Shown here one piece after another: positions 3,090 through 41,042 of a stretch of DNA of 42,254 nt. Both the position numbers and the translations under genes were made by a program. The DNA comes from Alphaproteobacteria bacterium (GTDB lineage Bacteria; Pseudomonadota; Alphaproteobacteria; RF32; CAG-239): assembly GCA_017543835.1 (NCBI GenBank), contig JAFYFJ010000001.1, positions 1 to 42,254 of the forward strand, written 5' to 3'. Each line of letters begins with the position of its first letter. The stretch's first letter is position 1. The notes below the pieces were generated by a model. The model was not told where the DNA came from. It was given only the letters and a program-made list of their open reading frames with translations, and did no database searches.

Positions 3090-3171
3090 ATCTCTTTCTT
3101 TCTCATAGACAAACTTGATTTGAATATATACAATGCAAATATTATCGCAACAAAAAAGAAGAATAATCAAC

Positions 3172-4035
3172 ATGCGCCCGAGTATTTTATATCCGCTTTT
3201 TGCCCCGATTGATACGCTGACCGGCATCGGCAAGCGCTATTGCACGTTGATGAGTAACCTGTGCGGCGGCAAGGTGCTCGACTTGTTGTGGCATTTTCCG
3301 AGCGGATTTGTGGACCGGCGTTGTAATGTGCCGCTGTGCCGCGCCGCCGACGGCAAAATCTGGACCGGAAAAGTGCGCGTGGTAGAACACGCGGTGCCAA
3401 AAACCAAAAAGCAACCGTATCGCATTGCGGTTGAAGACAATACCGACCAGATGACTTTGGTGTTTTTCAAAGTGTTCGGTGACAGTATTGTCAAGCAATT
3501 TCCGGTGGGGGCGGAAAGGATTATCAGCGGCAAAATCGAAATTTTTAACGGCTTGTTGCAGATGAGCCACCCCGATTATGTGGTTGACCCTGCCAAACCG
3601 GAGTTGATGCCGCTGATTGAAACGGTATATCCGCTGACTGCCGGCGTCACCAACAAAATGCTTAATCGGCAAATTATGCAAGCGCTCGAGCGGGTGCCGG
3701 ATTTGCCGGAGTGGCTCGACGAGCGCTATGTGGCGCAACAAAATTGGCCGCGCTTCAAAGAGGCGGTGTGGACGGTGCATCATCCGCAAACCCTTGCCGA
3801 TATTGAGCCGAATGCACCGGCGCGGCGACGTTTGGCTTATGACGAATTACTCGCCAACCAGCTTTCACTCGCGATTGTGCGCGGTCGGCTCAAAAAGCAA
3901 AAAGGCCGCTCGCTTGCGGGTAACGGTGCACTCAAAGAAAAACTGCGCGCGGTGTTGCCGTTTGCGCTCACCGCCGCTCAAGAGCGCGTGATTGCAGAAA
4001 TCGAGAGCGATTTGTTCAGTGATTATCGAATGTAA
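3172..4035 (+). CDS. recG: ATP-dependent DNA helicase RecG, N-terminal (wedge/OB) fragment, ended by an in-frame TAA at 4033-4035
   Basis: The ORF is 3133-4035. The likely start is Met14 (MRPSILYPLFAPIDTLTGIGKRY, a typical RecG N-terminus). It is in the same frame as ORF 4039-5253, and the TAA falls one residue before the RLLQGDVGSGKT Walker A motif. Confidence 0.85.
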   Translation: MRPSILYPLFAPIDTLTGIGKRYCTLMSNLCGGKVLDLLWHFPSGFVDRRCNVPLCRAADGKIWTGKVRVVEHAVPKTKKQPYRIAVEDNTDQMTLVFFKVFGDSIVKQFPVGAERIISGKIEIFNGLLQMSHPDYVVDPAKPELMPLIETVYPLTAGVTNKMLNRQIMQALERVPDLPEWLDERYVAQQNWPRFKEAVWTVHHPQTLADIEPNAPARRRLAYDELLANQLSLAIVRGRLKKQKGRSLAGNGALKEKLRAVLPFALTAAQERVIAEIESDLFSDYRM

Positions 4036-4038
4036 CGT

Positions 4039-5253
4039 TTGTTGCAAGGTGATGTCGGCAGCGGCAAAACGATTGTGGCGCTGATGACAATGCTCAACGC
4101 GGTCGAGTGCGGGTGTCAGGCGGCAATTATGGCACCGACCGAGATTTTGGCTCAGCAACACGCCGAAACAATTTCCGAGCTGTGTGCCAAAATCGGTGTC
4201 AAAACGGCACTGCTGACGAGCAATATCAAGGGCAAAGCGCGCAAAACTCTTTTGGAAGAACTGGCGGCCGGAAATATCGATATCCTTATCGGAACGCACG
4301 CCCTGTTCACCGAAGATGTGACGTTCAAAGATTTGGCTTATGCGATTGTGGACGAGCAACACCGTTTCGGCGTCAAACAGCGACTGAGTTTGTCGGAAAA
4401 AGGTAATCTCTGTGATGTGCTTGTGATGACGGCAACGCCTATTCCGCGCACGCTTGTGTTGACGCAATTCGGCGATATGGAATATTCTAAAATTGATGAA
4501 CTTCCGGCGGGGCGCAAACCGGTGCGGACAACCGTTATGCCGTTAAGCAAAATCAACAATGTGGTCGAGGCGTTGGCGCGCAAATTATCAACCGGCACAC
4601 AGGCCTATTGGGTGTGTCCGTTGGTGGAGGAGTCCGAAAAAATCGACCTTTCCGCCGCTACCGAGCGCTTTGAGAGTTTGCAAAAAATCTTCGGTAATGC
4701 CGTCGGACTGGTGCACGGTAAAATGAAGGAAGCCGAGAAAAATGCGGTGATGGAAGACTTTAAGCAAGGTAAACTCAAACTCCTTGTTTCGACCACCGTG
4801 ATTGAAGTCGGCGTCAATGTGCCGAATGCGACGATTATGGTGGTGGAACACGCCGAGCGTTTCGGTTTGGCGCAGTTGCATCAGTTGCGCGGGCGGATTA
4901 AGCGCGGCTCGGAGCAAGGAAGCTGTATTTTGATGTATGGCTATCCGCTCAGTGCCGTTTCGCACGAGCGGCTGAACACAATGAAGGCGACCGAGGACGG
5001 CTTTTTAATTGCCGAAGAAGATTTGAAGTTGCGCGGCGGCGGCGAAGTTTTGGGCACACGACAGTCGGGATTTAATAATTTTAAGGTGGCGGATTTGAGC
5101 GTGCACGGCGATTTACTCTTAACGGCGAGCAAAGATGCGGCACTTTTATTGCGGCAAGACCCGAACTTGCAATCGGCGCGCGGCCAAGCCCTCCGCACCC
5201 TACTCTATCTGTTTGAACAAGACGAAATGATACGCACCTACAAAGCGGGATAA
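4039..5253 (+). CDS. recG: RecG helicase core, C-terminal fragment (same frame as 3172-4035; a real independent start is doubtful)
   Basis: It carries LQGDVGSGKT, VDEQHRFGV (DEQH box), MTATPIPRT, QLHQLRGRIKRG and the C-terminal TRG-like LKLRGGGEVLGTRQSG. The track start is a TTG immediately after the stop. Confidence 0.85.
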   Translation: MLQGDVGSGKTIVALMTMLNAVECGCQAAIMAPTEILAQQHAETISELCAKIGVKTALLTSNIKGKARKTLLEELAAGNIDILIGTHALFTEDVTFKDLAYAIVDEQHRFGVKQRLSLSEKGNLCDVLVMTATPIPRTLVLTQFGDMEYSKIDELPAGRKPVRTTVMPLSKINNVVEALARKLSTGTQAYWVCPLVEESEKIDLSAATERFESLQKIFGNAVGLVHGKMKEAEKNAVMEDFKQGKLKLLVSTTVIEVGVNVPNATIMVVEHAERFGLAQLHQLRGRIKRGSEQGSCILMYGYPLSAVSHERLNTMKATEDGFLIAEEDLKLRGGGEVLGTRQSGFNNFKVADLSVHGDLLLTASKDAALLLRQDPNLQSARGQALRTLLYLFEQDEMIRTYKAG

Positions 5254-5321: not shown

Positions 5322-5379
5322 AAATCATCCATCACGTCTTAAATTTGCGGTTTGCAAATTTAAGGCGTGCCCCGAAGGG
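5322..5379 (+). repeat. Hairpin repeat element copy E1 (short form, + orientation)
   Basis: The sequence is AAATCATCCATCAC-GTCTTAAATTTGC-GGTTT-GCAAATTTAAGGC-GTGCCCCGAAGGG. Its first 52 nt are identical to 7048-7099. The family is defined in the findings. Confidence 0.85.
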
Positions 5380-5441
5380 AAGAGTTTACAATACAATTTT
5401 CTCTCAACTATGTTATTTATTCCCTACACAACAAAAATACG

Positions 5442-5471
5442 TTGACAAACATCAGCCGATTGTTTTATGCT
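5442..5471 (+). promoter_or_regulatory. Sigma70-like promoter (TTGACA-N18-TATGCT)
   Basis: TTGACA lies at 5442-5447 and TATGCT at 5466-5471. It sits about 270 nt upstream of the first ORF (5745), with an intrinsic terminator in between. Confidence 0.4.
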
Positions 5472-5685
5472 GAACACGAATGCGAGAGATTGCATTTGGG
5501 GCGTGGAAACCTCTTTATAGGCGTTTGTGCAAAGCGTTAATTTTGCGCGCCGTGATGGTTATATATAGTATGACCGGAGGGCGGCAAAATAAGCCGTTTT
5601 ACATAACATTCATATAGATACTAGTGATATATGCCTGTTTAGGCAAATATGTCGCGCTATTCCTATAAATAGTTTCCAACGTCCG

Positions 5686-5711
5686 GTCGCTTATTCTTAA
5701 GCGACTTTTTT
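5686..5711 (+). terminator. Rho-independent terminator
   Basis: The hairpin is GTCGCTTA-TTCT-TAAGCGAC, followed by TTTTTT. Confidence 0.6.
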
Positions 5712-5744
5712 GTTGGTTAACTTCTTATGGGAAAGGGATAAAAA

Positions 5745-5951
5745 ATGAAAAAGTCGTGTTTTTTCACATTGGGAAGCATTTTGTTATTAGTCTCTTTTAT
5801 TACGTCCTGTTCGTATAGTGAGGAAGAAAAGGCTTGTAGAAAAGATTGTTTGGAAAATCCATATTACGATCAATTTTCAACTTTTATAGAAGGTGAAAAG
5901 AGAAATATGTGTCTAAAAAGATGTCGACATATTACAAGAAAGGATAATTAA
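5745..5951 (+). CDS. Small Cys-rich lipoprotein (68 aa), hypothetical
   Basis: It has the signal peptide MKKSCFFTLGSILLLVSFITSC with an I-T-S-C lipobox. It is the first gene of a tightly packed, AT-rich three-gene operon. Confidence 0.6.
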   Translation: MKKSCFFTLGSILLLVSFITSCSYSEEEKACRKDCLENPYYDQFSTFIEGEKRNMCLKRCRHITRKDN

Positions 5952-5952
5952 A

Positions 5953-6705
5953 ATGTCAAGTGGAGATGATTTTTTTGCTTCATTAATATTAGGTTTAATA
6001 TTTATTGGAGGACCGATTGCTGTGTGTATTGATGTAAATAGAGAAAATAGAGAAAATCAGCAACGAAAAAATGGTTGGCAAGAAAGACGAGATACATTTC
6101 GAACACAACGAAATATAGAACGAACAAACTTTTATAGCTATACAAGTTTTAATAATGATACCGATGCAGAATTTATATTAGATGAAAAACATAGAACGGT
6201 TTGGGCTTCCGATTCTACAGGACAATATGTTGAAATTCCTTTTAAGGAAATTGTTGGTTGCGAAACAATAATTGATAATCAATCTGTTGGAGGAATCGGA
6301 CGAGCTATTGCAGGAGGAATTCTGGCTGGTGGAGCAGGAGCTATTGTTGGAGCACTTACAACGCATAAAAAAATAGCATCTTTCAAATTTGTGATATATC
6401 GTAATAATCTTCAAAAACCGAGTTATTATTATGAATTAATTCATAGCATCTCAAATAATCAAACTGAAAATAATATAAATTACGAAAAAGCTATGCGCTT
6501 TTCTCAAAATGTAACAGCTAGCATTAAAGCAATTATAGCACAGAATGAATCTAAATCTAAATCTGAAATAGAAAAAGAGAATAAGCAAAATAACGAAATC
6601 AATTTAGAAAAACGCCTCAAATCATTAGATAATTTACTGAAAAAAGGACTAATTTCGGACAAAGAATACAACGAAAAACGTAGTCAACTATTGAATGATT
6701 TATAA
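5953..6705 (+). CDS. Membrane protein with a glycine-zipper segment and a C-terminal SHOCT domain
   Basis: It has an N-terminal TM (FFASLILGLIFIGGPIAVCI) and an internal GGIGRAIAGGILAGGAGAIVGAL segment. The C-terminal LEKRLKSLDNLLKKGLISDKEYNEKRSQLL matches the SHOCT pattern from memory. The start lies 1 nt after the upstream stop. Confidence 0.75.
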   Translation: MSSGDDFFASLILGLIFIGGPIAVCIDVNRENRENQQRKNGWQERRDTFRTQRNIERTNFYSYTSFNNDTDAEFILDEKHRTVWASDSTGQYVEIPFKEIVGCETIIDNQSVGGIGRAIAGGILAGGAGAIVGALTTHKKIASFKFVIYRNNLQKPSYYYELIHSISNNQTENNINYEKAMRFSQNVTASIKAIIAQNESKSKSEIEKENKQNNEINLEKRLKSLDNLLKKGLISDKEYNEKRSQLLNDL

Positions 6706-7043
6706 TGAAAAGATGGAAATATTTTGGCATTAAACCTCTGTGTAATCTCAGAGAAGATACAGCACTGCATATTGGAAATTTCTGCTTTCCTTTATGCTAT
6801 CGTTGTAGTGCAATAATTATAAATTTTATTGTTGCCACTATTTTATTGAAAAACGATATTTTTTCAATAGTAATTGGATTTTTATTGATGTTACCTTGTT
6901 TGATAGATGGAATCCTTCAGTATTGTTTTAAAATTAGAAGCACTAATACCAGAAGAATTATAACAGGTTCAATAGCGGGCTGGGGATTAGCTGTGTTATA
7001 TATTTACCTTATCAACTTAATACATTCCCAAAGCACTATTTGA
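6705..7043 (+). CDS. DUF2085-like small membrane protein
   Basis: It carries the CNLREDTALHIGNFCFPLCYRCSAI motif (C-x-R...P-x-C-x-R-C) plus three hydrophobic segments. Its ATG overlaps the upstream TAA by 1 nt. Confidence 0.7.
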   Translation: MKRWKYFGIKPLCNLREDTALHIGNFCFPLCYRCSAIIINFIVATILLKNDIFSIVIGFLLMLPCLIDGILQYCFKIRSTNTRRIITGSIAGWGLAVLYIYLINLIHSQSTI

Positions 7044-7047
7044 TAAC

Positions 7048-7290
7048 AAATCATCCATCACGTCTTAAATTTGCGGTTTGCAAATTTAAGGCGTGCCCCA
7101 AAGGGTAAAATCCGCACCCTCGATGTTCGTCAGCGCCGCCGAACTTCCCCCATTCTTGCGCGCTACCGCACCTCCCCTTCTTCCGCCCTGCCGCACATCT
7201 TACCCTATTCCGCGTCGTGCACAGACCGGTCACAGCCGCCGGCATCGCCTTCTTTGCCGCCAACGCGCGTCGTGCGTTTGCACCTCGGCC
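7048..7290 (+). repeat. Hairpin repeat element copy E2 (long form: hairpin module plus GC-rich module, + orientation)
   Basis: 7048-7099 is identical to E1. The following GC-rich approximately 190 nt aligns, with indels, to the reverse complement of 17215-17348. Shared strings include GGGTAAA(A)TCCGC, CGCCGAACTTCCCC and CCGCCGGCA. Confidence 0.75.
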
Positions 7291-7568
7291 ACATAATCCC
7301 CGCCCGCACTTATACTCGGCATTATGCGTAATAAGTTCGTCATCTGAATACGGCTTTTCGCCTGATGTTTCCAACTCATAACCTTGCCCTTTGCGTATAA
7401 AATACTATATTATTAAGTGTATTCTTTTATATCAACTTCTAAAAGTAATTATAGCAAGCTATTCTTAATGTCAAGCGAAAAAACGCTTGATTTATGCCGC
7501 ACTTTCATCTAAAGTTACTCTCGCAAATCAATTATGAAGATATTTTTACAACTCTAAACTTACAGCTT

Positions 7569-7814
7569 ATGATAACAAATTGCAGAGAAGCGTTGTTGTT
7601 TTTGGTGCAAAAACAGCAAGGTCAATGGAACGAGCTACAATCTCAGATTGAGCCGAAAATGCTCGATTGGTTCAAAACCATGGGGTATATCCGTCACGGC
7701 AAGGATAAGTGGCAGATTACTTCCGCCGGCGTGAAGCAGTCGTTGTTCTATCGCGAGCCGACGCCCGAAGAGCGCGAGCAAGGTCTTTTGATGTATCAGT
7801 TAGGTATACTTTAA
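7569..7814 (+). CDS. Small hypothetical protein, possibly winged-helix-like (81 aa from the ATG at 7569; the ORF is open from 7494)
   Basis: The ATG at 7569 sits in the island-specific GCTTATG context. The sequence is LLFLVQKQQGQWNELQSQI...WFKTMGYIRHGKDKWQITSAG. The function call is weak. Confidence 0.45.
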   Translation: MITNCREALLFLVQKQQGQWNELQSQIEPKMLDWFKTMGYIRHGKDKWQITSAGVKQSLFYREPTPEEREQGLLMYQLGIL

Positions 7815-7825
7815 AATTTTGGCTT

Positions 7826-8131
7826 ATGGATAAAATTGGTGTAACTGAGGTTCGGAAGATTCTGTTAGAAGTGCTCAGCGAATATACCGGACTTTGTGAA
7901 GGTTTGGCAAGTATGGAGAGTATACCCGATGAGAAGTTGCTGAAGACAAATCTTCGTGACGAGTTTGGTATGGACTCGATGGACTTCGAAAGTATGTTTG
8001 ACGAGCTTTATGACCTCTACGGCATCGTCGTTGATGTGCATAATCCGCTGACTCAATTTTCTTTTAAGGAAGAGCCGACTGTGGAGAATTTTATCGAAAT
8101 GGTCAATTATTGCCTGAGTATTGAGGCATAA
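7826..8131 (+). CDS. Acyl-carrier-protein-like protein (101 aa)
   Basis: LRDEFGMDSMDFESMFDELYDLYGIVV matches the ACP phosphopantetheine-site pattern (D-S-hydrophobic-D ... E-x-x-F-G-I). The ATG at 7826 is in the frame of track ORF 7709-8131, and the upstream part of that ORF overlaps the previous gene. Confidence 0.7.
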   Translation: MDKIGVTEVRKILLEVLSEYTGLCEGLASMESIPDEKLLKTNLRDEFGMDSMDFESMFDELYDLYGIVVDVHNPLTQFSFKEEPTVENFIEMVNYCLSIEA

Positions 8132-8137
8132 ATTCTG

Positions 8138-8178
8138 AAAATCCCCCGCCGCCACCGTGCCGCGAGGGATTTTTTTTG
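8138..8178 (+). terminator. Rho-independent terminator T1a (48-nt block identical to 10138-10185)
   Basis: The sequence is AAAATCCCCCGCCGCCACCGTGCCGCGAGGGATTTTTTTT. Confidence 0.75.
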
Positions 8179-8179
8179 T

Positions 8180-8218
8180 TTGACTTTTCCAAAATTTTCG
8201 TCTATAAATCTATTTCAG
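8180..8218 (+). promoter_or_regulatory. Junction promoter module P1
   Basis: TTGACT lies at 8180-8185 directly after the terminator T-run, and TATAAA lies at 8213-8218. It is homologous to P2 and P3. Confidence 0.45.
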
Positions 8219-8264
8219 AATGTAATTATCAAGTTAATCTTTATATTAATTATTTTATTTGCTT

Positions 8265-8651
8265 ATGACAACAGTAATAATTATCGGTATCGTAGGCTTG
8301 TGCATTGTTGCCTTGCACTACGCGTTTGGTTTCCACTATTATTATATTAGTGAGAAACAGTCGTATCACTCAAAAGAAGAGTGGTGGTATAAGAGATGCA
8401 TGGTTGCCGGCGCTTGTTGGAACTTCGCTCTGTTTGTTTTTACGTTTATGTCTTTTATCTTACTTGACCATGCCAACGATGTGACTGTTTCACAAGGAAT
8501 TATCTGCTTTCTGCTGGTAATATGTGAAATTTTTGCCATCGTCGTCGGCTGGGGATTCTGGGCTATCGGAAGAATAGCGCTCGGTTTTGTAGAGGTGTTT
8601 AGTGATGCATTCACTATTCTCTTCTCTAAGGGACAATACGAAAAATGTTGA
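8265..8651 (+). CDS. Small integral membrane protein (128 aa), hypothetical
   Basis: It has four hydrophobic segments. The ATG at 8265 is in the GCTTATG context, and the track start at 8259 is a TTG. Confidence 0.6.
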   Translation: MTTVIIIGIVGLCIVALHYAFGFHYYYISEKQSYHSKEEWWYKRCMVAGACWNFALFVFTFMSFILLDHANDVTVSQGIICFLLVICEIFAIVVGWGFWAIGRIALGFVEVFSDAFTILFSKGQYEKC

Positions 8652-8680
8652 GTAAGTAAAATCAACGATTTAGATTAAGA

Positions 8681-8717
8681 AAATCCGCAGAACCTTTGCG
8701 TTCCGCGGATTTTTTTT
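8681..8717 (+). terminator. Rho-independent terminator T2
   Basis: The sequence is AAATCCGCAGAAC-CTTTGC-GTTCCGCGGATTTTTTTT. It is homologous to the terminator at 10894-10934. Confidence 0.75.
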
Positions 8718-8719
8718 AT

Positions 8720-8769
8720 TTGACTCTGATATGTTTTTTATTTAAGGTAGCGGTTAGAAAATCTATAAT
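8720..8769 (+). promoter_or_regulatory. Junction promoter module P2
   Basis: The module reads TTGACT(8720-8725)-N17-TAAGGT, with a downstream TATAAT at 8764-8769. About 55 nt are nearly identical to 10180-10229. Confidence 0.55.
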
Positions 8770-8803
8770 TATAACAACATGTATCATTAAAATATAATTG
8801 CGT

Positions 8804-9313
8804 ATGGAAAAGACTTCTTTAGCTAAGTACATCGTCGGTTTGGCATTGTTTATCATAACCGGTATTCTTGCCGCCGCGACCATCTATTTTGACGTGTTTA
8901 CGCCGTTTTTTAAGGGGATTCAGACACCTGACGATTATGCTTTTATAGCCGTAATCACGTTGCTTTTCGGGCCATGGGTTGTTTTGTTTCTGTCTCCGGT
9001 GTTTGTCACTATTTGGGATTATATCGGAGAGAAATACGGCAAAAAACAACATCTGTTAAATGTCTGTTGGTTGGTCTTGTGTTGCGCATTTGCTTATTTT
9101 GCGGGTAATTTTCCGAGTGTTTTGATAAAAATCGGTAAACTTCCCGCCATAAGTGAATTATCTCTTCAGTTATATCGCTTGGTGATTATCCTTATAACAT
9201 TGTTTTTGTTATGTTGGCTTTGTCACTTGGTTGATTATTTTACAAACACCTTTTGGAATCTCAAAACACCAATGAGAAAACCACGAGGTGAAAACATTGT
9301 GAGTGCAAACTAA
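8804..9313 (+). CDS. Integral membrane protein (169 aa), hypothetical
   Basis: It has 4-5 hydrophobic segments. The ATG at 8804 is in the GCGTATG context. Confidence 0.6.
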   Translation: MEKTSLAKYIVGLALFIITGILAAATIYFDVFTPFFKGIQTPDDYAFIAVITLLFGPWVVLFLSPVFVTIWDYIGEKYGKKQHLLNVCWLVLCCAFAYFAGNFPSVLIKIGKLPAISELSLQLYRLVIILITLFLLCWLCHLVDYFTNTFWNLKTPMRKPRGENIVSAN

Positions 9314-9326
9314 ATAATAAACGCGT

Positions 9327-9770
9327 ATGAAAAAGTTAGTCTTTGCGTTAATTGCCGCGCTCAGCGTAGCATTAACTGGTTGCTCTGCTTTTGAAAGCGA
9401 GCCGATTGAACCGAATATCATCGGCACCGGCAATCTGCAATATGAGGCAAAAAGCGGCACTTGGTTTGTGGTTGTTGACTCAACTCAATACACCGTTGCC
9501 ACTGTAACTATTCTTGACAACAATCCGCATTCATATGGCAAAACGCAGAATGTTGAGCCGGTTGAGGGAATGTTGGTTACCGTGTTCACTTCACCGCGTA
9601 TGAATGGTATTCAGGCGGTTACCGGTAGGCAATCAATTGAGCAGATTGAGGAATTGTATCACACCGACGAAACTGGAGTTGTTGTTGTTTTTGGGCTCTT
9701 ACTGCTGTGTGTCTTAGGTATTGCTATACCAAACACCAAAAAAGTTCCTGTGGTGAATGCCGATGTATAA
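9327..9770 (+). CDS. Lipoprotein with a C-terminal TM segment (147 aa), hypothetical
   Basis: MKKLVFALIAALSVALTGC carries an L-T-G-C lipobox, and the C-terminal segment is VVVVFGLLLLCVLGIAIP. The start context is GCGTATG. Confidence 0.65.
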   Translation: MKKLVFALIAALSVALTGCSAFESEPIEPNIIGTGNLQYEAKSGTWFVVVDSTQYTVATVTILDNNPHSYGKTQNVEPVEGMLVTVFTSPRMNGIQAVTGRQSIEQIEELYHTDETGVVVVFGLLLLCVLGIAIPNTKKVPVVNADV

Positions 9771-9788
9771 CGAAAACCCTGAAAGCGT

Positions 9789-10133
9789 ATGGAAAAACAG
9801 AAATTGACTTTCCGCCAAGAGGTTGCTTATGCGCATTGGTCAGCTAAGATTGCATTTGACTTTCCGCACGTCGGATATGGCCTTATGCTTATTGCGATGG
9901 CAATTTATTTCGGGCTGGCATATTGGTTCTTCGAGCCGGAAATCCGATTTTGGGAACATTTGTCCGGTTCGCACGCTCTGGGCAAGGCCTACTTCTATCG
10001 CTTGGGTGGTGTTCTTCTGATAGTGGCTTTGAGTTACCTCACGGTGTATATCATCTACTTCATTCATGCATTGTTTGATAAGGATGAGGTTTGCCGCAAG
10101 CACTTCTTGAAGAATCATTATCGCAAACACTAA
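9789..10133 (+). CDS. Small membrane protein (114 aa), hypothetical
   Basis: It has two or three hydrophobic segments and the GCGTATG start context. It is the last gene of a three-gene unit. Confidence 0.6.
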   Translation: MEKQKLTFRQEVAYAHWSAKIAFDFPHVGYGLMLIAMAIYFGLAYWFFEPEIRFWEHLSGSHALGKAYFYRLGGVLLIVALSYLTVYIIYFIHALFDKDEVCRKHFLKNHYRKH

Positions 10134-10137
10134 ACAA

Positions 10138-10178
10138 AAAATCCCCCGCCGCCACCGTGCCGCGAGGGATTTTTTTTG
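10138..10178 (+). terminator. Rho-independent terminator T1b (copy of 8138-8178)
   Basis: A 48-nt string is identical to 8138-8185, exactly 2000 bp downstream of the first copy. Confidence 0.75.
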
Positions 10179-10179
10179 T

Positions 10180-10227
10180 TTGACTCTGATGTATTTTTTA
10201 TTTATGGTGCGTGTAGAAATTTATAAT
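10180..10227 (+). promoter_or_regulatory. Junction promoter module P3
   Basis: TTGACT lies at 10180-10185 and TATAAT at 10222-10227. The sequence is nearly identical to P2. Confidence 0.55.
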
Positions 10228-10269
10228 TATACCAAAAAAATTATTTACAAAACAAAATATTATTAGCGT

Positions 10270-10890
10270 ATGGAACAAATTATCGATTCAAAAACTTCAA
10301 CAAAGAAGAAGTCTGCCCAAAAGCATTGGTTTACGCCAAAAGTTGCGGCTCTGGTCAAGAAAATTTCAACAGAAAAATGGTTCGTCAGCGAAGTCATTTA
10401 TCCCAAAGAAGTCCCCGGATGCGAGATTTTCGATTATAACGGTTGTATGCGGCTGTATCATAATAAAGCTCGATTTTTTGCAATGAATGATGAGCGGCTG
10501 AATACCGAAATCGGCAAATATTGCAACCTGAATATCGATTTTGTCAGCGCCGAAAAAATCATTATCCGACAACCCGACGAAACGGCCTTTGATAAATGGA
10601 ATAACGGTGCGCAATTTGAGTTGACTTCTCTATGGCCCGGACGACAGCTGGTTGTTGCCACAAACCACACAACTCATCAGCTTATGGCACTTGCGCCGAT
10701 TTTTGTTGTATCTACTCCGGAATTTCGTTCTACCAGTGACCTTGGAAGATTCTATGAGTTTGAAAAGGAGTTTAAACTCTGCCGGAAGCATTTGGAAACA
10801 CGACAAATCAAGGCCTTACATCCGGAAACGCCGGACTTTTTGCAAAACTCGTATAATTTGCTGATTTGGTTGAAAAATCATTGTTATTGA
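10270..10890 (+). CDS. Hypothetical cytoplasmic protein (206 aa)
   Basis: It is a complete ORF with the GCGTATG start context. It has its own promoter module upstream and a terminator downstream. I recognise no motif. Confidence 0.6.
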   Translation: MEQIIDSKTSTKKKSAQKHWFTPKVAALVKKISTEKWFVSEVIYPKEVPGCEIFDYNGCMRLYHNKARFFAMNDERLNTEIGKYCNLNIDFVSAEKIIIRQPDETAFDKWNNGAQFELTSLWPGRQLVVATNHTTHQLMALAPIFVVSTPEFRSTSDLGRFYEFEKEFKLCRKHLETRQIKALHPETPDFLQNSYNLLIWLKNHCY

Positions 10891-10893
10891 ACT

Positions 10894-10934
10894 AAAAAAA
10901 ATCCGTCGAACTTAGCGTTTCGGCGGATTTTTTT
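10894..10934. terminator. Bidirectional terminator between the cassette array and the convergent U32 gene
   Basis: The sequence is AAAAAAA-ATCCGTCGAAC-TTAGC-GTTTCGGCGGAT-TTTTTT, with A- and T-runs on both sides. Confidence 0.7.
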
Positions 10935-14941: not shown

Positions 14942-14960
14942 GTGATTATTTTTAATGCTT

Positions 14961-15008
14961 TATGTAATTGCGGTCGGCAAATCGTAGCCGTGCCCCGAAA
15001 GGTTACCC
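14961..15008 (+). repeat. Hairpin repeat element copy E3 (degenerate, + orientation)
   Basis: TATGTAATTGCGGTCGGCAAATCGTAGCCGTGCCCCGAAAGGTTACCC retains the GTGCCCC-GAAA-GG module and a decayed stem. Confidence 0.55.
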
Positions 15009-15972: not shown

Positions 15973-16009
15973 CATATCTGAGATTTGTTTTTGATGAATC
16001 TCAGATATG
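15973..16009 (+). terminator. Perfect 12-bp inverted repeat downstream of csp (terminator or operator)
   Basis: CATATCTGAGAT-N13-ATCTCAGATATG is followed by ATTTTATTT. Its 3' arm contains the first ATG of track ORF 16007. Confidence 0.35.
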
Positions 16010-16066
16010 ATTTTATTTATCTTCAAGAACAGGATTATAAATGACGCAAATGGTAATCTTTATGAT

Positions 16067-16759
16067 ATGAAAACCGTTTACGGCACTATAAGAGATATTA
16101 AGGAAAAATATGGTAATTCTGTTGCTTCGATAAGAAAAGAAACCAAGAAATCAAATATTATGGCTTCTGAAACACTTGATTGGGTGGATGAGCCTGACGG
16201 GTTTATCACTACGGCAAACGGAAATGTAGTTCCTATCGAATATCTTGATGTAACTGATGTATCAGAAACATTTGAGGGTTTGCAAGAATATACTCGTGAA
16301 GAAGTTATTGATAAACTGAATTCCGAGTTAAACAAACTTATTGATGAAAAATATGATACAGGAACTCCGCCTTTACAAATTCGTATAGATAAAGGTAAAG
16401 TCCCGCATATTGTTGATAATGGTAAATCTTTACGCCCTACTCAACAAAAACAAAAAGGTGCGGCATTATTAACATTAAAAGAAATCATCAGTAAAGCAAA
16501 AAAAACTGAAAGAGATGGAACTGTTGATTTAAATCATAATAAAGGAAGAAATAAACAGCGAAAAGAAGATACCGTTGAAAAGTATGTTTATTTTGAAGCA
16601 TTTGTGAAAATCAAGGCTAAAAACAAAGATACTGGTAAATATGAAGTCAGAGTTCATCCGGTAGAATTGGCAACTGAACAGATAAAAGGTCAAGATGCTA
16701 ACTTATTGGATTTATATAATGTTCACGTAAAAAAGGGACGCGCTGCAAATAGTAATTAA
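16067..16759 (+). CDS. Hypothetical protein, AT-rich, probably MGE-derived (start uncertain: 16007 or 16067)
   Basis: It is a complete ORF, Lys-rich and visibly more AT-rich than the backbone. The segment KVPHIVDNGKSLRP...LTLKEIISKAKKTE...YVYFEAFVKI...YEVRVHPVE resembles phage or conjugative polyvalent-protein modules only loosely, from memory. A long imperfect hairpin spans the stop (about 16735-16790). Confidence 0.55.
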   Translation: MKTVYGTIRDIKEKYGNSVASIRKETKKSNIMASETLDWVDEPDGFITTANGNVVPIEYLDVTDVSETFEGLQEYTREEVIDKLNSELNKLIDEKYDTGTPPLQIRIDKGKVPHIVDNGKSLRPTQQKQKGAALLTLKEIISKAKKTERDGTVDLNHNKGRNKQRKEDTVEKYVYFEAFVKIKAKNKDTGKYEVRVHPVELATEQIKGQDANLLDLYNVHVKKGRAANSN

Positions 16760-16853
16760 CTATTTATGCTGCAGACCGCGTCCCTTTCTGATTATATTAT
16801 AACCCATTTTTTCAAAAAAATAAATAAAAAAATGGTATATTTCGGAAAAAAAT

Positions 16854-17057
16854 ATGAAACAGGGGAAAGCATTAAGGCATAATGTCGGCATTGCCAAGTG
16901 GTATAATGACGAAATACAGTCGTTATGTCGGGAAATGTTTGATGATACGCAAAAAGAGCTTATGCCGTTATACGCTAAGTATGATTATGTGGCTATGGAT
17001 AGTCTTTCGTTTGACTTTACTTCCCTTCGGGGCACTTCTGCACGTCATAATTTATGA
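16854..17057 (+). pseudogene. Gene fragment (67 aa) truncated by repeat copy E4
   Basis: The reading frame runs into the repeat, which supplies the last approximately 13 codons and the stop. The N-terminal part (GIAKWYNDEIQSLCREMFDDTQKELMPLYAKY) looks like the start of a larger protein. Confidence 0.35.
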
Positions 17058-17075
17058 CGCACAGAAGTGATAGAT
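17017..17075 (-). repeat. Hairpin repeat element copy E4 (- orientation, different stem sequence)
   Basis: The sequence is TTACTTCCCTTCGGGG-CACTTCTGCACGTCATA-ATT-TATGACGCACAGAAGTG-ATAGAT. Confidence 0.7.
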
Positions 17076-17150
17076 ATTTTTAGTAATACACTGTTTCAAA
17101 ATAAGTGTCTGCAAAATATACCGGTAATGGCTATTGCGACAGATAAGATT

Positions 17151-17205
17151 TTACCCTTTTGGGCACGCCTTAAATTATTGGCAAAATGCTGAAATGTTTA
17201 TGGTT
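17151..17205 (-). repeat. Hairpin repeat element copy E5 (- orientation, degenerate)
   Basis: In TTACCCTTTTGGGCACGCCTTAAATTATTGGCAAAATGCTG the left arm is conserved and the right arm has decayed. Confidence 0.55.
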
Positions 17206-17214
17206 TAGAAACAG

Positions 17215-17406
17215 AGCGTATTTGAACAATATATCTGCCACATTTTGCGCTTGCGAAAAATGTGCCGGCGGTAGCCGTTACGGCGGGAAAAAAGTGCTAC
17301 GGCGCGGAAAAAGGGGAAGTTCGGCGACGCGAATAACAAACTGAGCGGATTTACCCTTCGGGGCACGCCTACAATTTGCGGACAGCAAATTGTAGGCGTG
17401 ATGGAT
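17215..17406 (-). repeat. Hairpin repeat element copy E6 (long form, - orientation)
   Basis: The core is ATTTACCCTTCGGGG-CACGCCTACAATTTGC-GGACA-GCAAATTGTAGGCGTG-ATGGAT, with a perfect 16-bp stem. It is preceded by a GC-rich module homologous to 7100-7290 in inverted orientation. It is followed by a 33-nt direct duplication (17401-17433 and 17442-17474). Confidence 0.8.
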
Positions 17407-17499
17407 AAAAGATTATAAAAGTGACCGTTTTTCTCAACGGTATGGATAAATGGTTATAAAAGTGAGCATTTTTCGGTAATTTTGTTATCAAAAAATCTT

Positions 17500-18501
17500 T
17501 TATACCAAGCCGGTGCGGCACAGAGCGGCATAAACCGGCTTATCTAATCCGAGCTGTTTAATCAGCACGGACGGGCGGCTTTCCACTTGTAAATCGCGCT
17601 CGCCGCAAGCGTTATCTTTGCGCCATTTCAGCACCGCGCTCGGCAGTTCTGCCTTGCCGATACACGACGAAAGATACACCCACACCTCGTCATTATCCGC
17701 CAGATTTTCCACCGCCAAACGCCGCGCGTATAAGTTCAGCGTTAAATCGGCTTTGGTCGCATCCTTGGTCCACGGCGAACCGCCGCCGACGGCACTCGCG
17801 GTCGAATAAAAATCCACCGCCAGTTTACGCCCCGTAATGCCGCAATCGGCAATACTCGAGTGCGTGGTGTAATTCCCTGCCCCGTTGATGATGATTTGCG
17901 CCGGTTGTTCACCCAAAACTTCGGCAATAAAGCTGCTCAAATCTTCCGGCTCAAGCATCGGCACCGCCGCCACCGCCGTCAAGATTCGGCCGCTGTCATC
18001 AAGCGTGATTTGCGTTTTAATATCAAGCCCTAAGTTATTGCTTTGACGCGCTTTTTTATAAATTTCACGATTAAGTTTGCGTGCCAAATAAAGCTCGCGA
18101 TTCAGATTTTCCGCGCCTTTGCAGGCATACCCGACAAACACGCCTTGGTCGCCCCACCCGTCATTATCGACGCCCTGTGCAATTTCACACGACTGCGTGC
18201 CGACAAGGTTGATGACTTCCACTTTGCGCACATCAATCGCCTTATCTCCCCAAATTTTTGCATAGCGCTCGTCATAACCGATTTCGCGCAATGCGGCTTT
18301 TACATACTGCTCAAATGGCGCGTTTTGCACCTTAGAGCATATTTCTCCGCCCAAAACGACAGTATTACCCTTAACCATCACTTCGACGGCATAACGCGTT
18401 TTTGCGTCTTGCTCGATAAAGCGGTCTAAAATGTAGCTGGTAATGTAATCGGCAATTTTATCAGGGTGTCCCAAAGACACATATTCTGCTGTTTTTATCA
18501 T
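17500..18501 (-). CDS. metK: S-adenosylmethionine synthetase-like protein, short divergent form (333 aa)
   Basis: MetK-like motifs are present: GHPDKIAD, GWGDQGVFVGY, LDIKTQI, ADCGITGRK and GGGSPWTKDATKADLT (canonically GGGAFSGKDPSKVDRS). It is about 50-60 aa shorter than canonical bacterial MetK. Confidence 0.75.
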   Translation of the reverse strand: MIKTAEYVSLGHPDKIADYITSYILDRFIEQDAKTRYAVEVMVKGNTVVLGGEICSKVQNAPFEQYVKAALREIGYDERYAKIWGDKAIDVRKVEVINLVGTQSCEIAQGVDNDGWGDQGVFVGYACKGAENLNRELYLARKLNREIYKKARQSNNLGLDIKTQITLDDSGRILTAVAAVPMLEPEDLSSFIAEVLGEQPAQIIINGAGNYTTHSSIADCGITGRKLAVDFYSTASAVGGGSPWTKDATKADLTLNLYARRLAVENLADNDEVWVYLSSCIGKAELPSAVLKWRKDNACGERDLQVESRPSVLIKQLGLDKPVYAALCRTGLV

Positions 18502-18609: not shown

Positions 18610-18667
18610 GGTTTAATGTTGTGATTTGTGCAAGTCGTGTTATAATTGCGCACAAAGGAGAAAAATA

Positions 18668-19336
18668 ATGAAACATATCGGACTAATGTTTGCAATGGAC
18701 AAGGAAATGGCATTTTTTGCCTCAATGCTTGAAAATTTACAACAAAAAACTATACATCAACGCACTTTTTATACCGGTGTTGTCGGTGACAAAGTCATAA
18801 CTGCCGTCGTTTCCGGTATGGGCAAGGTTAATGCGGCAATTTGCACCGCAGATTTAATCAGTGTTTTTAATGCAGATTTGATTTTGAATATCGGTATTTC
18901 CGGCGGCGCAGACAGTTCGCTCAACATCGGCGATTTTGTAGTGGGAACCGATATCGTATATCATGATGTATGGTGCGGTAATCCGTATAAATACGGGCAA
19001 GTTCAGGGTTTGCCGGAAATGTATCACAGCGAACCGACATTGGTGGCAAAACTTACAAAATATCGGCAAGGACTGCTCTGCTGCGGCGATTATTTTGTGG
19101 AAAAAGCCGAAACATTACAGGCCATCAAAAATAATTTTCCGGCCGCACTCGCGGTTGATATGGAAAGCGGTGCAATCGCTCAAACTTGCTATTTGTATAA
19201 CGTGCCGCTGTTGTCTGTGCGACAAATCAGCGATGTTCCGGGAAGCGAAAATCACGCCGAACAATATGCTACTTTTTGGGAAAATGCGCCGGCGCACTCC
19301 ATCAACCTTTTGCGCGAAGTTCTGAAAGTTCTGTAA
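18668..19336 (+). CDS. mtnN: 5'-methylthioadenosine / S-adenosylhomocysteine nucleosidase
   Basis: MKHIGLMFAMDKE...VVSGMGKVNAA...GISGG...AVDMESGAIAQ is the Pfs/MtnN pattern. The SD AAAGGAGA precedes the ATG at 18668. An extended -10 (TGTTATAAT) lies at 18638-18646. Confidence 0.88.
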   Translation: MKHIGLMFAMDKEMAFFASMLENLQQKTIHQRTFYTGVVGDKVITAVVSGMGKVNAAICTADLISVFNADLILNIGISGGADSSLNIGDFVVGTDIVYHDVWCGNPYKYGQVQGLPEMYHSEPTLVAKLTKYRQGLLCCGDYFVEKAETLQAIKNNFPAALAVDMESGAIAQTCYLYNVPLLSVRQISDVPGSENHAEQYATFWENAPAHSINLLREVLKVL

Positions 19337-34805: not shown

Positions 34806-35219
34806 TTACTTTTTCAGCTCGGCGCGAATAGCGGTTGTCGAGCGCACCGGCAACAAATCTTTCGGAATACGGTTACTGACGACATAACGCACACCCAAAC
34901 CCTCGACAAACGCACGTTTTTCGGCACTGTCGCCATCGGTATTCACAAAGAAAATATCCGGCTTGATTTGCTTGATTTCTTCAGCAAAATCGAGCTTACC
35001 GCTGCCTTGAGCCACAAATGCCTGATGCACAAAACGTATGGCCGAAACCATATACAGACGCTCGTCTTCGTTATAGAGCGTCGGGCGATGTTTAAGCTCT
35101 TCCACCGTTTTATCCGAACCGATGGAAACATACAAATCACCGTATTGCGAGGCCTCCTCAAAAAAGCGGATATGCCCGCTGTGCAACACATCAAAACAAC
35201 CCGATACAAATACTTTCAT
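34806..35219 (-). CDS. Cytidylyl/adenylyltransferase-family protein (TagD/RfaE-domain-II-like, 137 aa)
   Basis: VFVSGCFDVLHSGHIRFF is the HxGH nucleotidyltransferase motif. It is the last gene of the glycan operon, 1 nt after the GT8 stop. Confidence 0.85.
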   Translation of the reverse strand: MKVFVSGCFDVLHSGHIRFFEEASQYGDLYVSIGSDKTVEELKHRPTLYNEDERLYMVSAIRFVHQAFVAQGSGKLDFAEEIKQIKPDIFFVNTDGDSAEKRAFVEGLGVRYVVSNRIPKDLLPVRSTTAIRAELKK

Positions 35220-35220
35220 C

Positions 35221-36132
35221 TTATTTATCCTCTATACTTAACAGTGGAATAACTCCGAAAAGTTTATATTTTGTCTGATTCGTCTTTTTATTAAGTTCTG
35301 CCATCACTTTAGCCAACACATCCTGAAACTCCTGATAAAACAGAATAAAGCGGGTATTCCAAGGCTTTGCCGCACCGGCATAATGGATAATAAACGGATT
35401 TTGAAAACCCTCAATCATTTCCTGATTGCCTTCTGTTTTGCTGTGAGTATGAACGGTAACACCATATTTGAAATGCAGTTTTTTGTAATTATTGGCAAAC
35501 ACCATATTAAATGCATCCAAATCTGCCGCAACCAACTTGTCGTGATATTGTATAGCTTTCTCAACCAGCTTGGCGGTAATATCATATTTTCGCCAATAAG
35601 CGCAATTAATAATGATATTGGCCGACTGAAAATATAAGTGACTTTCATCAATCGAAAATGTTTTCTTGCGTAACCGATGATTAAATATCCCCTCATGTTC
35701 TTTGCCGATTTCTTCGACGGTTGCCGCAATTCCGTAATTACCTAAATCAATGGCATAATACTTGGCAATATCCCCCATAAATATGCAATCCGCATCGGTA
35801 TAAATAACTTTGTCATATTTCTTGCATATTTCCGGAATAAAAAAGCGTGAATATGCCGACGTGCTGAAATGAAAAAGATTGGGAAAACGTTGCAAATCAT
35901 ATCGTTTCATATCAACAAAAGACAGCTTACAATTTTCAAAACGCTCCATCGCCTTTTTGATTTGCTTTTTATGCTCGGATGTTACGCCATCAGCCAAAAG
36001 AAAAAAGTGAATGAAAGATTTTGTTTTTTCCAAAATGGAATATATACAAACCGTCGTCGGTATTGTATAATTATCGTTCAGTGCCAAAACAACCGGAATC
36101 ACTTTTTTTTTTGTTTTTTTGCCGAATATCAT
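35221..36132 (-). CDS. Glycosyltransferase family 8 (LgtC/RfaJ-like), with the C-terminal KLFGVIPLLSIEDK tail
   Basis: IPVVLALNDNYTIPTTVCIYSI, YTDADCIFMGD (DxD) and HYAGAAKPW are GT8 motifs. Confidence 0.88.
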   Translation of the reverse strand: MIFGKKTKKKVIPVVLALNDNYTIPTTVCIYSILEKTKSFIHFFLLADGVTSEHKKQIKKAMERFENCKLSFVDMKRYDLQRFPNLFHFSTSAYSRFFIPEICKKYDKVIYTDADCIFMGDIAKYYAIDLGNYGIAATVEEIGKEHEGIFNHRLRKKTFSIDESHLYFQSANIIINCAYWRKYDITAKLVEKAIQYHDKLVAADLDAFNMVFANNYKKLHFKYGVTVHTHSKTEGNQEMIEGFQNPFIIHYAGAAKPWNTRFILFYQEFQDVLAKVMAELNKKTNQTKYKLFGVIPLLSIEDK

Positions 36133-36160
36133 TTTATAGTCCCTGCTTTATGGTATTATT

Positions 36161-36994
36161 TCAGTTATCATCTATACTTAATAACGGAATAAAACCAAAA
36201 AGTCTATAAGATTTTTTCTGTGAGAAATGGATATGTTTCCACTCATTTTGTTCGGCTCGTTTCTGGCGCGCCAATTTTTGGTGCCTCTCAAAATCGTCCA
36301 ATTCCTGCCGCGTATAATAAATATTGTTAAATCGGCTATGCTCTATTTTCCGCAACTGTTCATTTTTCGGATTTGCCGTTGCACCATCGAGCCAAAAACG
36401 TCCGACCAATGTATGAAGCATTTTGACCTTCTCGCCGGCGCTAATCAGGCGTAAATTCATTTCCGTGTCGGCCGAAATTTTGTAGCTTTCATCATACAGA
36501 CCGTATTTTTCAAACAAGGCTCGACGATAAAAAGCCGACTGATGCGCCATCGAATATTTCAAAAAAGTCATCTTATCAATCGGACTTTGATGGCGCCAAA
36601 CATACGCCAACTTTTTGTCCGAATTAAAACGTTCTTCTTCGGCTTGCAAAATGTTTTCGGTATATGTGTTATTCTTGAAAACTTTTTCAAGCGCATCACA
36701 AATCGCATATTCGTCGCCGCCGTTCATAAAATTAAGCCACTCGCCGTGCGCCAGTTTAATTCCCTTATTCATGGCATTGTATATGCCCTTGTCTTTTTCG
36801 GAAATCAGAATATTGATGCGGTCGGCATATTCTTTGAGCACATCAACTGTGCCGTCGGTGGAACCGCCGTCAACCACAATCCACTCAAAATCCTGCCAAC
36901 TCTGATTAACGATGCTCTTGCAGGTGCGCTCGATTGTGTCTTTGATATTGTAACTGACTGTAATAATACTCAATGTCGGATTTTGTTTTTTCAT
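36161..36994 (-). CDS. Glycosyltransferase family 2, with the C-terminal RLFGFIPLLSIDDN tail
   Basis: LSIITVSYNIKDTIERTCKSIVNQSWQDFEWIVVDGGSTDGT is a GT2 N-terminal pattern. The ATG at 36994 has the SD GAGGA 8 nt upstream. The track TTG start is 37009. Confidence 0.88.
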   Translation of the reverse strand: MKKQNPTLSIITVSYNIKDTIERTCKSIVNQSWQDFEWIVVDGGSTDGTVDVLKEYADRINILISEKDKGIYNAMNKGIKLAHGEWLNFMNGGDEYAICDALEKVFKNNTYTENILQAEEERFNSDKKLAYVWRHQSPIDKMTFLKYSMAHQSAFYRRALFEKYGLYDESYKISADTEMNLRLISAGEKVKMLHTLVGRFWLDGATANPKNEQLRKIEHSRFNNIYYTRQELDDFERHQKLARQKRAEQNEWKHIHFSQKKSYRLFGFIPLLSIDDN

Positions 36995-36995
36995 C

Positions 36996-40970: not shown

Positions 40971-41042
40971 AAACATCAGAAACCGAGCGTTTTTTTTGGA
41001 CGTGCGGTTGCTTTTTTATAACATATTAAAAAGGAGGAAAAA

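Follow-up and report, generated by a model that had tools for sequence, protein, structure and literature searches.

A clade-restricted repeat with a co-varying 37-base hairpin marks the borders of variable DNA in an uncultured alphaproteobacterium

What kind of element is a short repeat whose hairpin stem changes from copy to copy, while its length and flanks do not? The question is raised by repeats of ~60 bases lying between genes in positions 1 to 42,254 of contig JAFYFJ010000001.1 (the window, meaning here this whole stretch of DNA), from an uncultured gut-type alphaproteobacterium. An earlier note, made from the letters alone, listed six copies (E1 to E6) and proposed recognition as a folded single strand, with a REP/RAYT-type or IS200/IS605-type end, an RNA element or a recombination site as candidates. 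Here we analyze the repeats and compare them with relatives and with known systems. Each consists of a constant 37-base hairpin with a variable, co-varying stem, and a tiny GAA-loop hairpin, and the family is undescribed so far in the libraries searched. We lean towards a lineage-restricted new family of structured intergenic repeats of the general repetitive extragenic palindrome (REP)/bacterial interspersed mosaic element (BIME) kind, whose copies probably function as folded single-stranded DNA and as hotspots of recombination.

The 13-mer CCCTTCGGGGCAC occurs six times in the window at up to two mismatches (0.61 expected; none of 100 dinucleotide shuffles reaches six), exactly where the earlier note had placed its six copies. 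Folded as single strands, E1, E2, E4 and E6 form a hairpin of 16-17 bp with a 3-bp mini-hairpin immediately next to it; the z-scores range from -5.1 to -8.2, and none of 200 shuffles folds equally well. E3 and E5, already described as degenerate and decayed, respectively, show no such fold (z -0.7 and -0.3). The window contains ~13 uninterrupted hairpins of at least 13 bp, five of which are family members, all exactly 37 nt and running from CA(C/T) to (G/A)TG, while the remainder are ordinary A-run/stem/T-run terminators. The window total is seven copies in 42 kb: four that fold intact, two that are decayed (E3 and E5) and one, E7, that is hairpin-only. All the 37-nt hairpins are intergenic. 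The core module of ~60 nt reads, on the functional strand, 5'-ATC(C/T)AT, CAC, a 13-bp variable stem, a loop of 3-5 nt, the complementary arm, GTG, CC-C(GAA)G-GG-3', where the conserved flanks are ATC(C/T)AT and CCCCGAAGGG. The copies, in order along the window, are:

E1, 5322..5379, + strand: intact, stem class A with one T.G; covariance model score 79.6 bits.
E2, 7048..7105, + strand: intact, 5 nt after the DUF2085 stop; 79.0 bits.
E3, 14945..15008, + strand: decayed, with one arm and the CGAAAG mini-hairpin kept; 17.6 bits.
E7, newly found, 15973..16009, - strand: 37-nt hairpin-only copy, CAT ATCTGAGATT...ATG, without mini-hairpin.
E4, 17017..17078, - strand: intact, with an unrelated class B stem, perfect on the - strand with two G.T; 71.0 bits.
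E5, 17148..17205, - strand: decayed E1-type copy, with the mini-hairpin and one arm kept, and the loop and other arm deleted.
E6, 17349..17409, - strand: intact, with a perfect 16-bp stem of class A'; 80.3 bits.

The folded ('bottom') strand of E1, read on the + strand, is ATCCAT-CAC (stem A, one T.G) GTG-CCCCGAAGGG. E1 lies 70 nt past the recG stop and forms the left border of a cassette that ends in E2; the hairpins of E1 and E2 are identical (37/37), and the E2 mini-hairpin loop is AAA rather than GAA. The part of E5 that is retained has 97% identity to the matching half of E2. E6 lies 94 nt past the stop of a metK-like gene and in the same sense, and its perfect 16-bp stem had been correctly recognized. 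The E7 stem is related to that of a copy in a relative (class D in contig L032, below), its flank is of the E1 type (GTAAACTCTT), and it is conserved in another relative (L014). On the + strand, a T-rich tail follows the E7 hairpin, which could serve as the terminator of csp. The metK-like gene beside E6 (17500-18501, - strand) encodes a short, 333-aa 'methionine adenosyltransferase domain-containing' protein, and is divergently paired with a PNP_UDP_1 nucleosidase-type gene (18626-19336, + strand) in the window and in all the relatives fetched.

Covariation was assessed in 12 distinct intact copies from the window and from contigs L013, L014, L015 and L032 of close relatives, which align without gaps across the hairpin. 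The hairpin is 37 nt long in all 12. In the long helix, 12 of the 16 pairs are altered on both sides, a degree of covariation reached by none of 500 shuffles, and pairing falls to 23-46% when the 3' partners are slid by 1-3 columns as a control. The constraint on a folded single strand proposed earlier is borne out by these figures. The compensated difference between E1/E2 and E6 (TA to AC in one arm, TA to GT in the other) is present as described. In L032 the closing triplet itself is compensated, from CAC/GTG to CAT/ATG. About six stem classes are present among the 12 copies: A (GCCTTAAATTTGC), A' (GCCTACAATTTGC), A'' (GCCTATGGTTT), B (TTCTGCACGTCATA), C (GTCTTTGGCGTTGT) and D (ATCTGCAATTTAT). 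The earlier view that the stem sequence is free applies to the distal ~9 pairs, but not to the first 7 pairs at the stem base, which are semi-conserved as CAC-N-Y-C-T, nor to the length, which is fixed at 37 nt. The E4 stem had also rightly been called unrelated to the others; it is, however, perfect only on the - strand, with two A.C mismatches on the + strand. The hairpin is maintained by selection, through compensatory change.

The same 12 copies indicate which strand folds. Standard pairs occupy 98.4% of the long-helix cells on the bottom strand, versus 91.7% on the top strand. The non-Watson-Crick positions of the long helix comprise, on the bottom strand, 10 independent G.T, one A.C and two symmetric T.T, and a 10-to-1 split or a more extreme one has a probability of ~0.006 if both directions are equally likely. 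This wobble asymmetry identifies the folded strand as 5'-ATCCATCAC...GTGCCCCGAAGGG-3'. Most copies have GAA as the mini-hairpin loop on the bottom strand; three, namely E3 and two of those in L015, have GAAA. The UUCG-type mini-hairpin described earlier is found when the other strand is read, but there the tetraloop is destroyed by the GAAA variants. The oligonucleotides d(GCGAAGC) and d(GCGAAAGC) form extraordinarily stable DNA mini-hairpins, in which CC/GG closing pairs are tolerated and the DNA form is far stabler than the RNA form (PMC13037366). Since both sub-structures are optimal only on the bottom strand as single-stranded DNA, the folded form is probably single-stranded DNA.

The core module is embedded in a mosaic unit of 230-250 nt, which forms tandem arrays downstream of genes. 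Homology between the E2 and E6 flanks extends ~100 nt past the mini-hairpin; the unit is therefore longer than 58 nt. The module order on the + strand at 17 kb in the window, L014 and L015 is E, M1, M2, M3, next E, where M1 is GGCAAAATGCTGAAATG...GAAACAGAGCG, M2 is CACATTTT-loop-AAAATGTG and M3 is GC-rich. M2 with the start of M3 gives a weak covariance-model match in inverted orientation (14.6 bits) and resembles a two-hairpin module that has been inverted and has degenerated. One unit follows metK in L014, three in the window (one decayed) and three or four in L015, and both the number and the order of units vary among relatives. Four independent metagenome contigs terminate inside E/M units (L010, at the equivalent of window position 17172; L014, at 18224; L033; L034), as expected of a multi-copy repeat. 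L009 has N-gaps at two other places. The features that lie between and beside the copies are:

Cassette between E1 and E2, 5380..7047, + strand: leader with terminator, small lipoprotein, PH_gly_zipper/SHOCT protein and DUF2085 protein.
PH_gly_zipper/SHOCT protein, 5953-6705, + strand: in the cassette.
DUF2085 protein, 6705-7043, + strand: in the cassette.
E2 flank, 7106..7375, no strand given: GC-rich, non-coding, M3-like module, 86% conserved in L032; its initial ~100 nt are homologous to the E6 flank.
Prophage remnant, 16040..17016, + strand: body of a 250-aa open reading frame (ORF), and the MuF-like N-terminal ~55 codons (16854-17057) running into E4; absent from L014.
Spacer module between E4 and E5, 17079..17150, no strand given: TTTTTAGTAATACACTGTTTCAAAAT..., conserved in L014 and L015.
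Modules M1-M2-M3 between E5 and E6, 17206..17348, no strand given: parts of the mosaic unit.
Degenerate inverted E-like two-hairpin module, 17230-17292, + strand: CAC ATTTT...AAAAT GTG, then a GC hairpin; 14.6 bits.
Outer flank, 17401..17474, no strand given: two tandem 41-nt copies of ATGGATAAA(A/T)G(A/G)TTATAAAAGTGA..., single copy in L014.

Comparison with the relatives reveals copies at three kinds of border: those of a phage-type cassette that changes its location, those of a prophage remnant, and those where arrays have expanded or contracted. The 1.7-kb cassette (5325-7105 with the copies at its ends) is located after recG in the window, between E1 and E2, which are direct copies with the same 37-nt hairpin. 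L015 has this cassette, again with both end copies, in the metK array, exactly at the site of the window's decayed E5, and the similarity between the two genomes begins and ends at the outer ends of the copies. The PH_gly_zipper protein of the cassette matches PHROG 888. In more distant contigs, cassette homologues include a PH_gly_zipper and DUF2085 pair beside a Phage_Mu_F gene (L024, 531-3239), and the same pair directly downstream of the BREX genes PglZ and BrxL (L025, 1-11109; also L026 and L027), so the pair may be a phage- or defence-island-associated module. No flanking element accompanies the homologues of the cassette proteins in these distant contigs (L020-L028 and L035; near lepA, BREX or MuF genes). 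At the site orthologous to E2, L032 has a copy of class D whose outer neighbourhood is different; this contig was considered as a clean 'empty site' for the recG-side cassette and rejected, as its outer flank shares only ~22 nt with the E1 flank.

The leader of the cassette contains a weak match to the Rfam family sRNA-Xcc1 (5572-5706, + strand), which scores 27.3 bits where the gathering score is 53 and contains an insertion of 45 nt; an intrinsic terminator comes after it at 5685-5706. The leader moves together with the cassette, and the L015 version is 98% identical. The sRNA-Xcc1 family comprises small RNAs associated with integron cassettes.

At the metK array, the window contains an extra 1,036 bp (16040-17078) relative to L014. 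The right junction of this indel is the outer end of E4 (GTGATAGAT followed by ATT): the window reads ...GTGATAGATATT / TTTAGTAATAC, and L014 reads ...AACAGGATTAT / TTTTAGTAATAC, with merely a short microhomology of the GAT(T)AT type shared at the junction. The prophage remnant has an element copy at one end only, and the E4 orthologue in L015 has the same outer flank and different DNA on the mini-hairpin side. As noted earlier, E4 contains the end of the truncated ORF 16854-17057. Over its first ~55 residues, this ORF is similar to the N-terminal part of longer proteins, among them one of 278 aa with a weak Phage_Mu_F hit, and the homology ends where E4 begins. The 67-aa ORF has no similarity to the MuF gene of L024, a candidate homologue that was rejected; its matches are to other MuF-like N-termini. 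Beyond E4 there is no remainder of the MuF-like gene, but instead E4's own flank, common to L014 and L015, and E4 therefore represents a prophage-remnant junction or deletion end point and not the simple insertion into a gene that had been supposed. E3 lies within a 140-nt block in place of which L014 has unrelated sequence.

The family is confined to a narrow clade, since copies occur in the close relatives and are absent from more distant ones and from the species genomes, viral contigs and plasmid and phage records searched. Eight copies are present in metagenome contigs of the close relatives, one in L013, two in L014, four in L015 and one, that at the site orthologous to E2, in L032, a contig recovered via the translated repeat (107-aa ORF, 7051-7374). 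At least five independent loci carry the element across the clade. The adjacent MetK is 95% identical to that of the window in L014 and 89% in L015; the element is missing from metK relatives with 83-85% identity (L016-L018, L029-L031), and in L029 and L030 a convergent gene immediately follows metK. The window's own sequence was found only in ENA and Logan metagenome contigs. A strict search pattern, CCCTTYGGGGCACN{26,44}GTGATRGAT, finds eight matches among 185,579 species genomes; these are all in unrelated taxa, lack the hairpin and do not exceed the chance level. In JGI metagenomes it has two hits, one of them real (L013). Three patterns have no hits in 2.9 million viral contigs, and blastn of E6 against plasmid records and 50,697 phage records returned nothing. 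The comparison with Rfam proposed in the earlier note matched no family: nothing overlaps the elements at the gathering threshold or at E up to 10, and only a tRNA-Leu passes. A second, unrelated repeat family is present in the clade (GTCATCCTGAGGAGG...GAGGATCTCCGAAC...GTTCGG), in tandem beside the element in L013 (3060-3330) and upstream of the cassette homologue in L028 (60-240).

Among known systems, the repeats most invite comparison with REP, BIME and REPIN elements of Enterobacteria, Pseudomonas and Stenotrophomonas, with which they share extragenic palindromes of 20-50 nt, several stem classes and conserved single-stranded flanks. REPs fall into several classes per genome (y, z1 and z2 in E. 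coli, z2 being 37 nt), occur as inverted pairs in tandem, have one strand recognized as single-stranded DNA, and are linked with recombination (PMC8266576, PMC3184786); REP and BIME elements also stabilize mRNA (PMC3184786). The likeness to REP/BIME extends to a one-strand substrate, tandem clusters with linkers, compensatory upkeep of the hairpin, and links with recombination and mRNA stability (PMC8266576, PMC3116915, PMC3184786). Tandem arrays are clear here; the inverted pairing typical of BIMEs may be represented by the degenerate module at 17230-17292, which scores 14.6 bits. In REPs a conserved tetranucleotide, mostly GTAG, directly precedes the palindrome on its 5' side (PMC8266576). 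The present repeats lack a GTAG-type tetranucleotide in that position, and also differ in their additional, invariant mini-hairpin next to the long one, in stems rich in A+T where those of REPs are rich in G+C, and in a distribution that looks clustered at variable regions. REPs usually reach tens to hundreds of copies over a chromosome, and the RAYT gene (Y1 HUH, PF01797) typically has REPs on its flanks; here, the 42-kb window and ~165 kb of related loci contain no RAYT gene. The REP/RAYT candidacy proposed in the earlier note fails on the GTAG feature, and the repeats are assigned to the general REP/BIME kind and not to the RAYT-dependent REP family proper.

Integron attC sites also fold as a single strand in a strand-selective manner, with a conserved structure and largely free sequence, and similarly have a GAA loop on the folded strand, a position at cassette 3' ends and one orientation per array (PMC5027507). 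However, neither core motif (RYYYAAC or GTTRRRY) occurs within 40 nt of any copy on either strand, and the stems are uninterrupted over 16-17 pairs, without extrahelical bases or an unpaired central spacer. Thus, an attC-type site is excluded by sequence. In addition, the hairpins are always 37 nt long, against 57-141 nt for attC, the strand that folds is the one with the coding sense of the cassette, the window has no IntI or Phage_integrase domain, and the cassette carries its own leader and terminator whereas attC cassettes are promoterless.

IS200/IS605 ends contain subterminal hairpins that are read as single-stranded DNA by a Y1 HUH enzyme, and Borrelia lipoprotein genes have orphan stem-loops of this type at their 3' ends (PMC3184786). 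The repeats resemble such ends in having a junction a few nt outside the hairpin (the E4 end is 9-12 nt from the indel junction), and such orphan ends in being stem-loops with compensatory changes downstream of genes, without a transposase (PMC3184786). Unlike IS200/IS605, they have no TnpA, TnpB or omega-RNA, no distinct left and right ends and no definable conserved target tetranucleotide. Regarding IS200/IS605 or miniature inverted-repeat transposable element traits, there is no transposase remnant, there are no terminal inverted repeats around the unit, and the junction between L014 and the window has no target duplication, only the ATT microhomology. The ORFs of the window tested for recombinase or transposase domains (Mfd, RecG, U32 peptidase, MetK-like, PNP, MutL, PGI, M16 peptidases, glycosyltransferases and others) have none, in agreement with the earlier statement that no cognate enzyme is encoded there; no recombinases lie beside the copies in L013-L015, where the neighbours are an LRR protein and an HTH protein.

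Other palindromic repeats are less close. The dRS3 motif of Neisseria is ATTCCC-N8-GGGAAT. Neisseria NIME (RS units between dRS3), Rhizobium RIME and pneumococcal BOX elements are likewise modular palindromic mosaics, iterated intergenically in variable number and often beside variable genes (in part PMC3184786), but they have no sequence similarity to the present family, and none has a core of hairpin and GAA mini-hairpin. The invariant CC-C(GAA)G-GG and its GAAA variants correspond to the CC/GG form of the stable motif found in mini-hairpins at signals for single-strand replication and priming, such as the phage G4 origin and ssiA, and in G4-type origins the mini-hairpin also stands beside a larger hairpin (PMC13037366); the present element differs as a chromosomal multi-copy repeat with no evidence of priming, and the similarity is limited to 7-8 nt. 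Uptake sequences of Neisseriaceae and Pasteurellaceae were considered and dropped.

Taken as a REP/BIME-like family acting on the level of DNA, the repeats could work as follows. The bottom strand would fold as single-stranded DNA into a long stem with G.T wobbles and a d(C-GAA-G) or d(C-GAAA-G) mini-hairpin; the conserved stem base and flanks would be recognized by an enzyme (HUH/Y1 RAYT-like or other) that acts in trans, is specific for structure and has its gene elsewhere in the genome; and the action of this enzyme, together with RecA recombination between copies, would make the copies hotspots for insertion, deletion and shuffling of accessory DNA. Several points weigh against this reading. 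Neither a RAYT nor any other recombinase is present in the window or in any fetched locus, and no copy is adjoined by GTAG on either strand (GTAG occurs only inside the E6 and E3 stems). The copies in the window are confined to 5.3-17.4 kb, that is to within 12 kb, with none in the other 25 kb. Many of the 12 copies used for covariation are orthologues or recent duplicates, so that independent events are fewer than the cell counts imply. No clean presence/absence polymorphism of the element alone and no target-site signature or duplication was found among the compared relatives, so mobility of the element itself is unsupported. The choice of single-stranded DNA over RNA is based on indirect thermodynamic reasoning, and every intact copy lies in the sense of its upstream gene, which is also compatible with a role as RNA.

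The last point leads to the main rival, possible but rather unlikely, namely that the repeat is an RNA element transcribed in the 3' UTR of the upstream gene (for example a barrier to 3'-exonucleases that stabilizes the mRNA, an RNase III/E processing site or an unconventional terminator), its links to rearrangement being incidental. At each independent intact locus, the folded strand and the upstream gene have the same sense (recG before E1, DUF2085 before E2, metK before E6/E4, and a tatA-like gene before the L013 copy), but the rule comes from four such loci, with a chance of ~1/16 for that orientation and 1/8 for either. G.U wobbles are typical of RNA helices, the GAAA variants would be GNRA tetraloops, and stabilization of mRNA by REP/BIME is already described (PMC3184786); yet the majority loop on the folded strand, CGAA/GAA, is not a stable RNA tetraloop, and the stable cUUCGg loop belongs to the opposite strand, whose long stem has A.C mismatches. 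E7 has its T-rich tail on the + strand after csp, but the intact copies lack a U-tract on either strand and none is terminator-like. There is no Rfam match, and the coincidence of indel and cassette junctions with element ends is left unexplained. A role as RNA is in any case compatible with the reading as recombinogenic DNA and does not exclude it. That the copies are chance palindromes or ordinary intrinsic terminators at gene ends, the latter an alternative raised in the earlier note, is hardly credible: although they are intergenic and downstream of genes in a window with many ordinary terminators, the motif is tenfold above chance, the flanks are shared, the length does not vary from 37 nt, T-runs are lacking, and covariation is far above controls. 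The canonical terminators of the window differ (A-run, GC stem, T-run), and intrinsic-terminator calls are negative for E1, E2, E4 and E6 on both strands, with only the degenerate E7 called.

Two further explanations start from the DNA that the copies enclose. In one, which we regard as quite unlikely, the repeat is an attC-like cassette site of a non-integron kind: accessory cassettes of phage origin would be moved from one resident copy to another by a recombinase or HUH enzyme with its gene elsewhere, which would integrate and excise circular cassettes with one copy each in a strand-specific manner, and would recognize the shape (37-nt hairpin, stem base, GAA mini-hairpin and ATCCAT flank) and not the stem sequence. 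Conservation of structure, length and flanks with variable stem sequence accords with this proposal, as do the uniform orientation of copies within each array and a GAA loop on the folded strand typical of the attC terminal loop (PMC5027507). A 1.7-kb promoter-bearing cassette lies between two direct copies at two resident sites in two relatives, and the two hairpins of the window cassette are identical, as expected after recent integration. However, the pattern is seen for one cassette only, homologous recombination between ~85% identical copies would look no different, only one end of the prophage remnant has a copy, and cassette homologues in more distant genomes lack the element; furthermore, ~165 kb of related DNA contains no integrase, and the perfect stems lack extrahelical bases, an unpaired spacer and an AAC/GTT core. 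In the other, which is less likely still, the repeat is a boundary of phage origin, a linker or terminator of a temperate phage or gene-transfer agent that stayed behind in the chromosome along with moron-type cassettes and has multiplied only through duplication and homologous recombination. Phage-like features are found in the DNA next to the copies: a PH_gly_zipper protein that hits PHROG 888, a gene pair that elsewhere stands beside Phage_Mu_F and BREX genes, and a MuF-like N-terminal fragment abutting E4. Set against this are the null results in 2.9 million viral contigs (three patterns) and 50,697 phage records (blastn), the presence of copies also after the core genes recG and metK and a tatA-like gene, and the compensatory evolution and constant length, which indicate selection on the structure itself.

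Other features of the window were noted in passing. The recG frame upstream of E1 (3133-5253, + strand) contains an in-frame TAA at 4033-4035, just before the Walker A motif (..RM*RLLQGDVGSGKT), which could denote a pseudogene, a strain-specific nonsense mutation or an assembly error. Positions 7494-10934 hold small membrane-protein and lipoprotein genes without Pfam or PHROG hits, with repeated gene junctions consisting of a terminator and a TTGACT promoter-like site (8138-8208, 8677-8748 and 10138-10208; 48 nt are identical between the junctions at 8138 and 10138), and this looks like an array of orphan immunity or accessory genes. A sequence of ~55 nt with a 27-nt core precedes successive glycosyltransferase-type genes on the - strand (35214-35268, 36154-36208 and 36989-37043; also 38781 and 39066), and could represent a promoter or leader that the genes of a polysaccharide locus share. 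The ORF at 41022-42254 (+ strand; more than 411 aa), which continues past the end of the window and is without a Pfam hit, contains an 81-nt sequence twice in tandem at 41358-41518, with 90% identity between the two repeats.

Returning to the favoured reading of a REP/BIME-like family that probably acts as folded single-stranded DNA, structured interspersed repeats are familiar from a small number of cultured model groups and almost unexplored in uncultured gut Alphaproteobacteria. With its constant hairpin length, about six stem classes and a clear read-out of the folded strand, the present family is an unusually clean natural dataset, useful for studying how structure-specific recognition of DNA or RNA evolves. 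In this lineage the repeat fragments metagenome assemblies, and it marks variable regions where phage-derived genes accumulate. If the link to cassette borders reflects a dedicated enzyme, it would represent a second, independent form of structure-guided gene-cassette recombination besides integrons.

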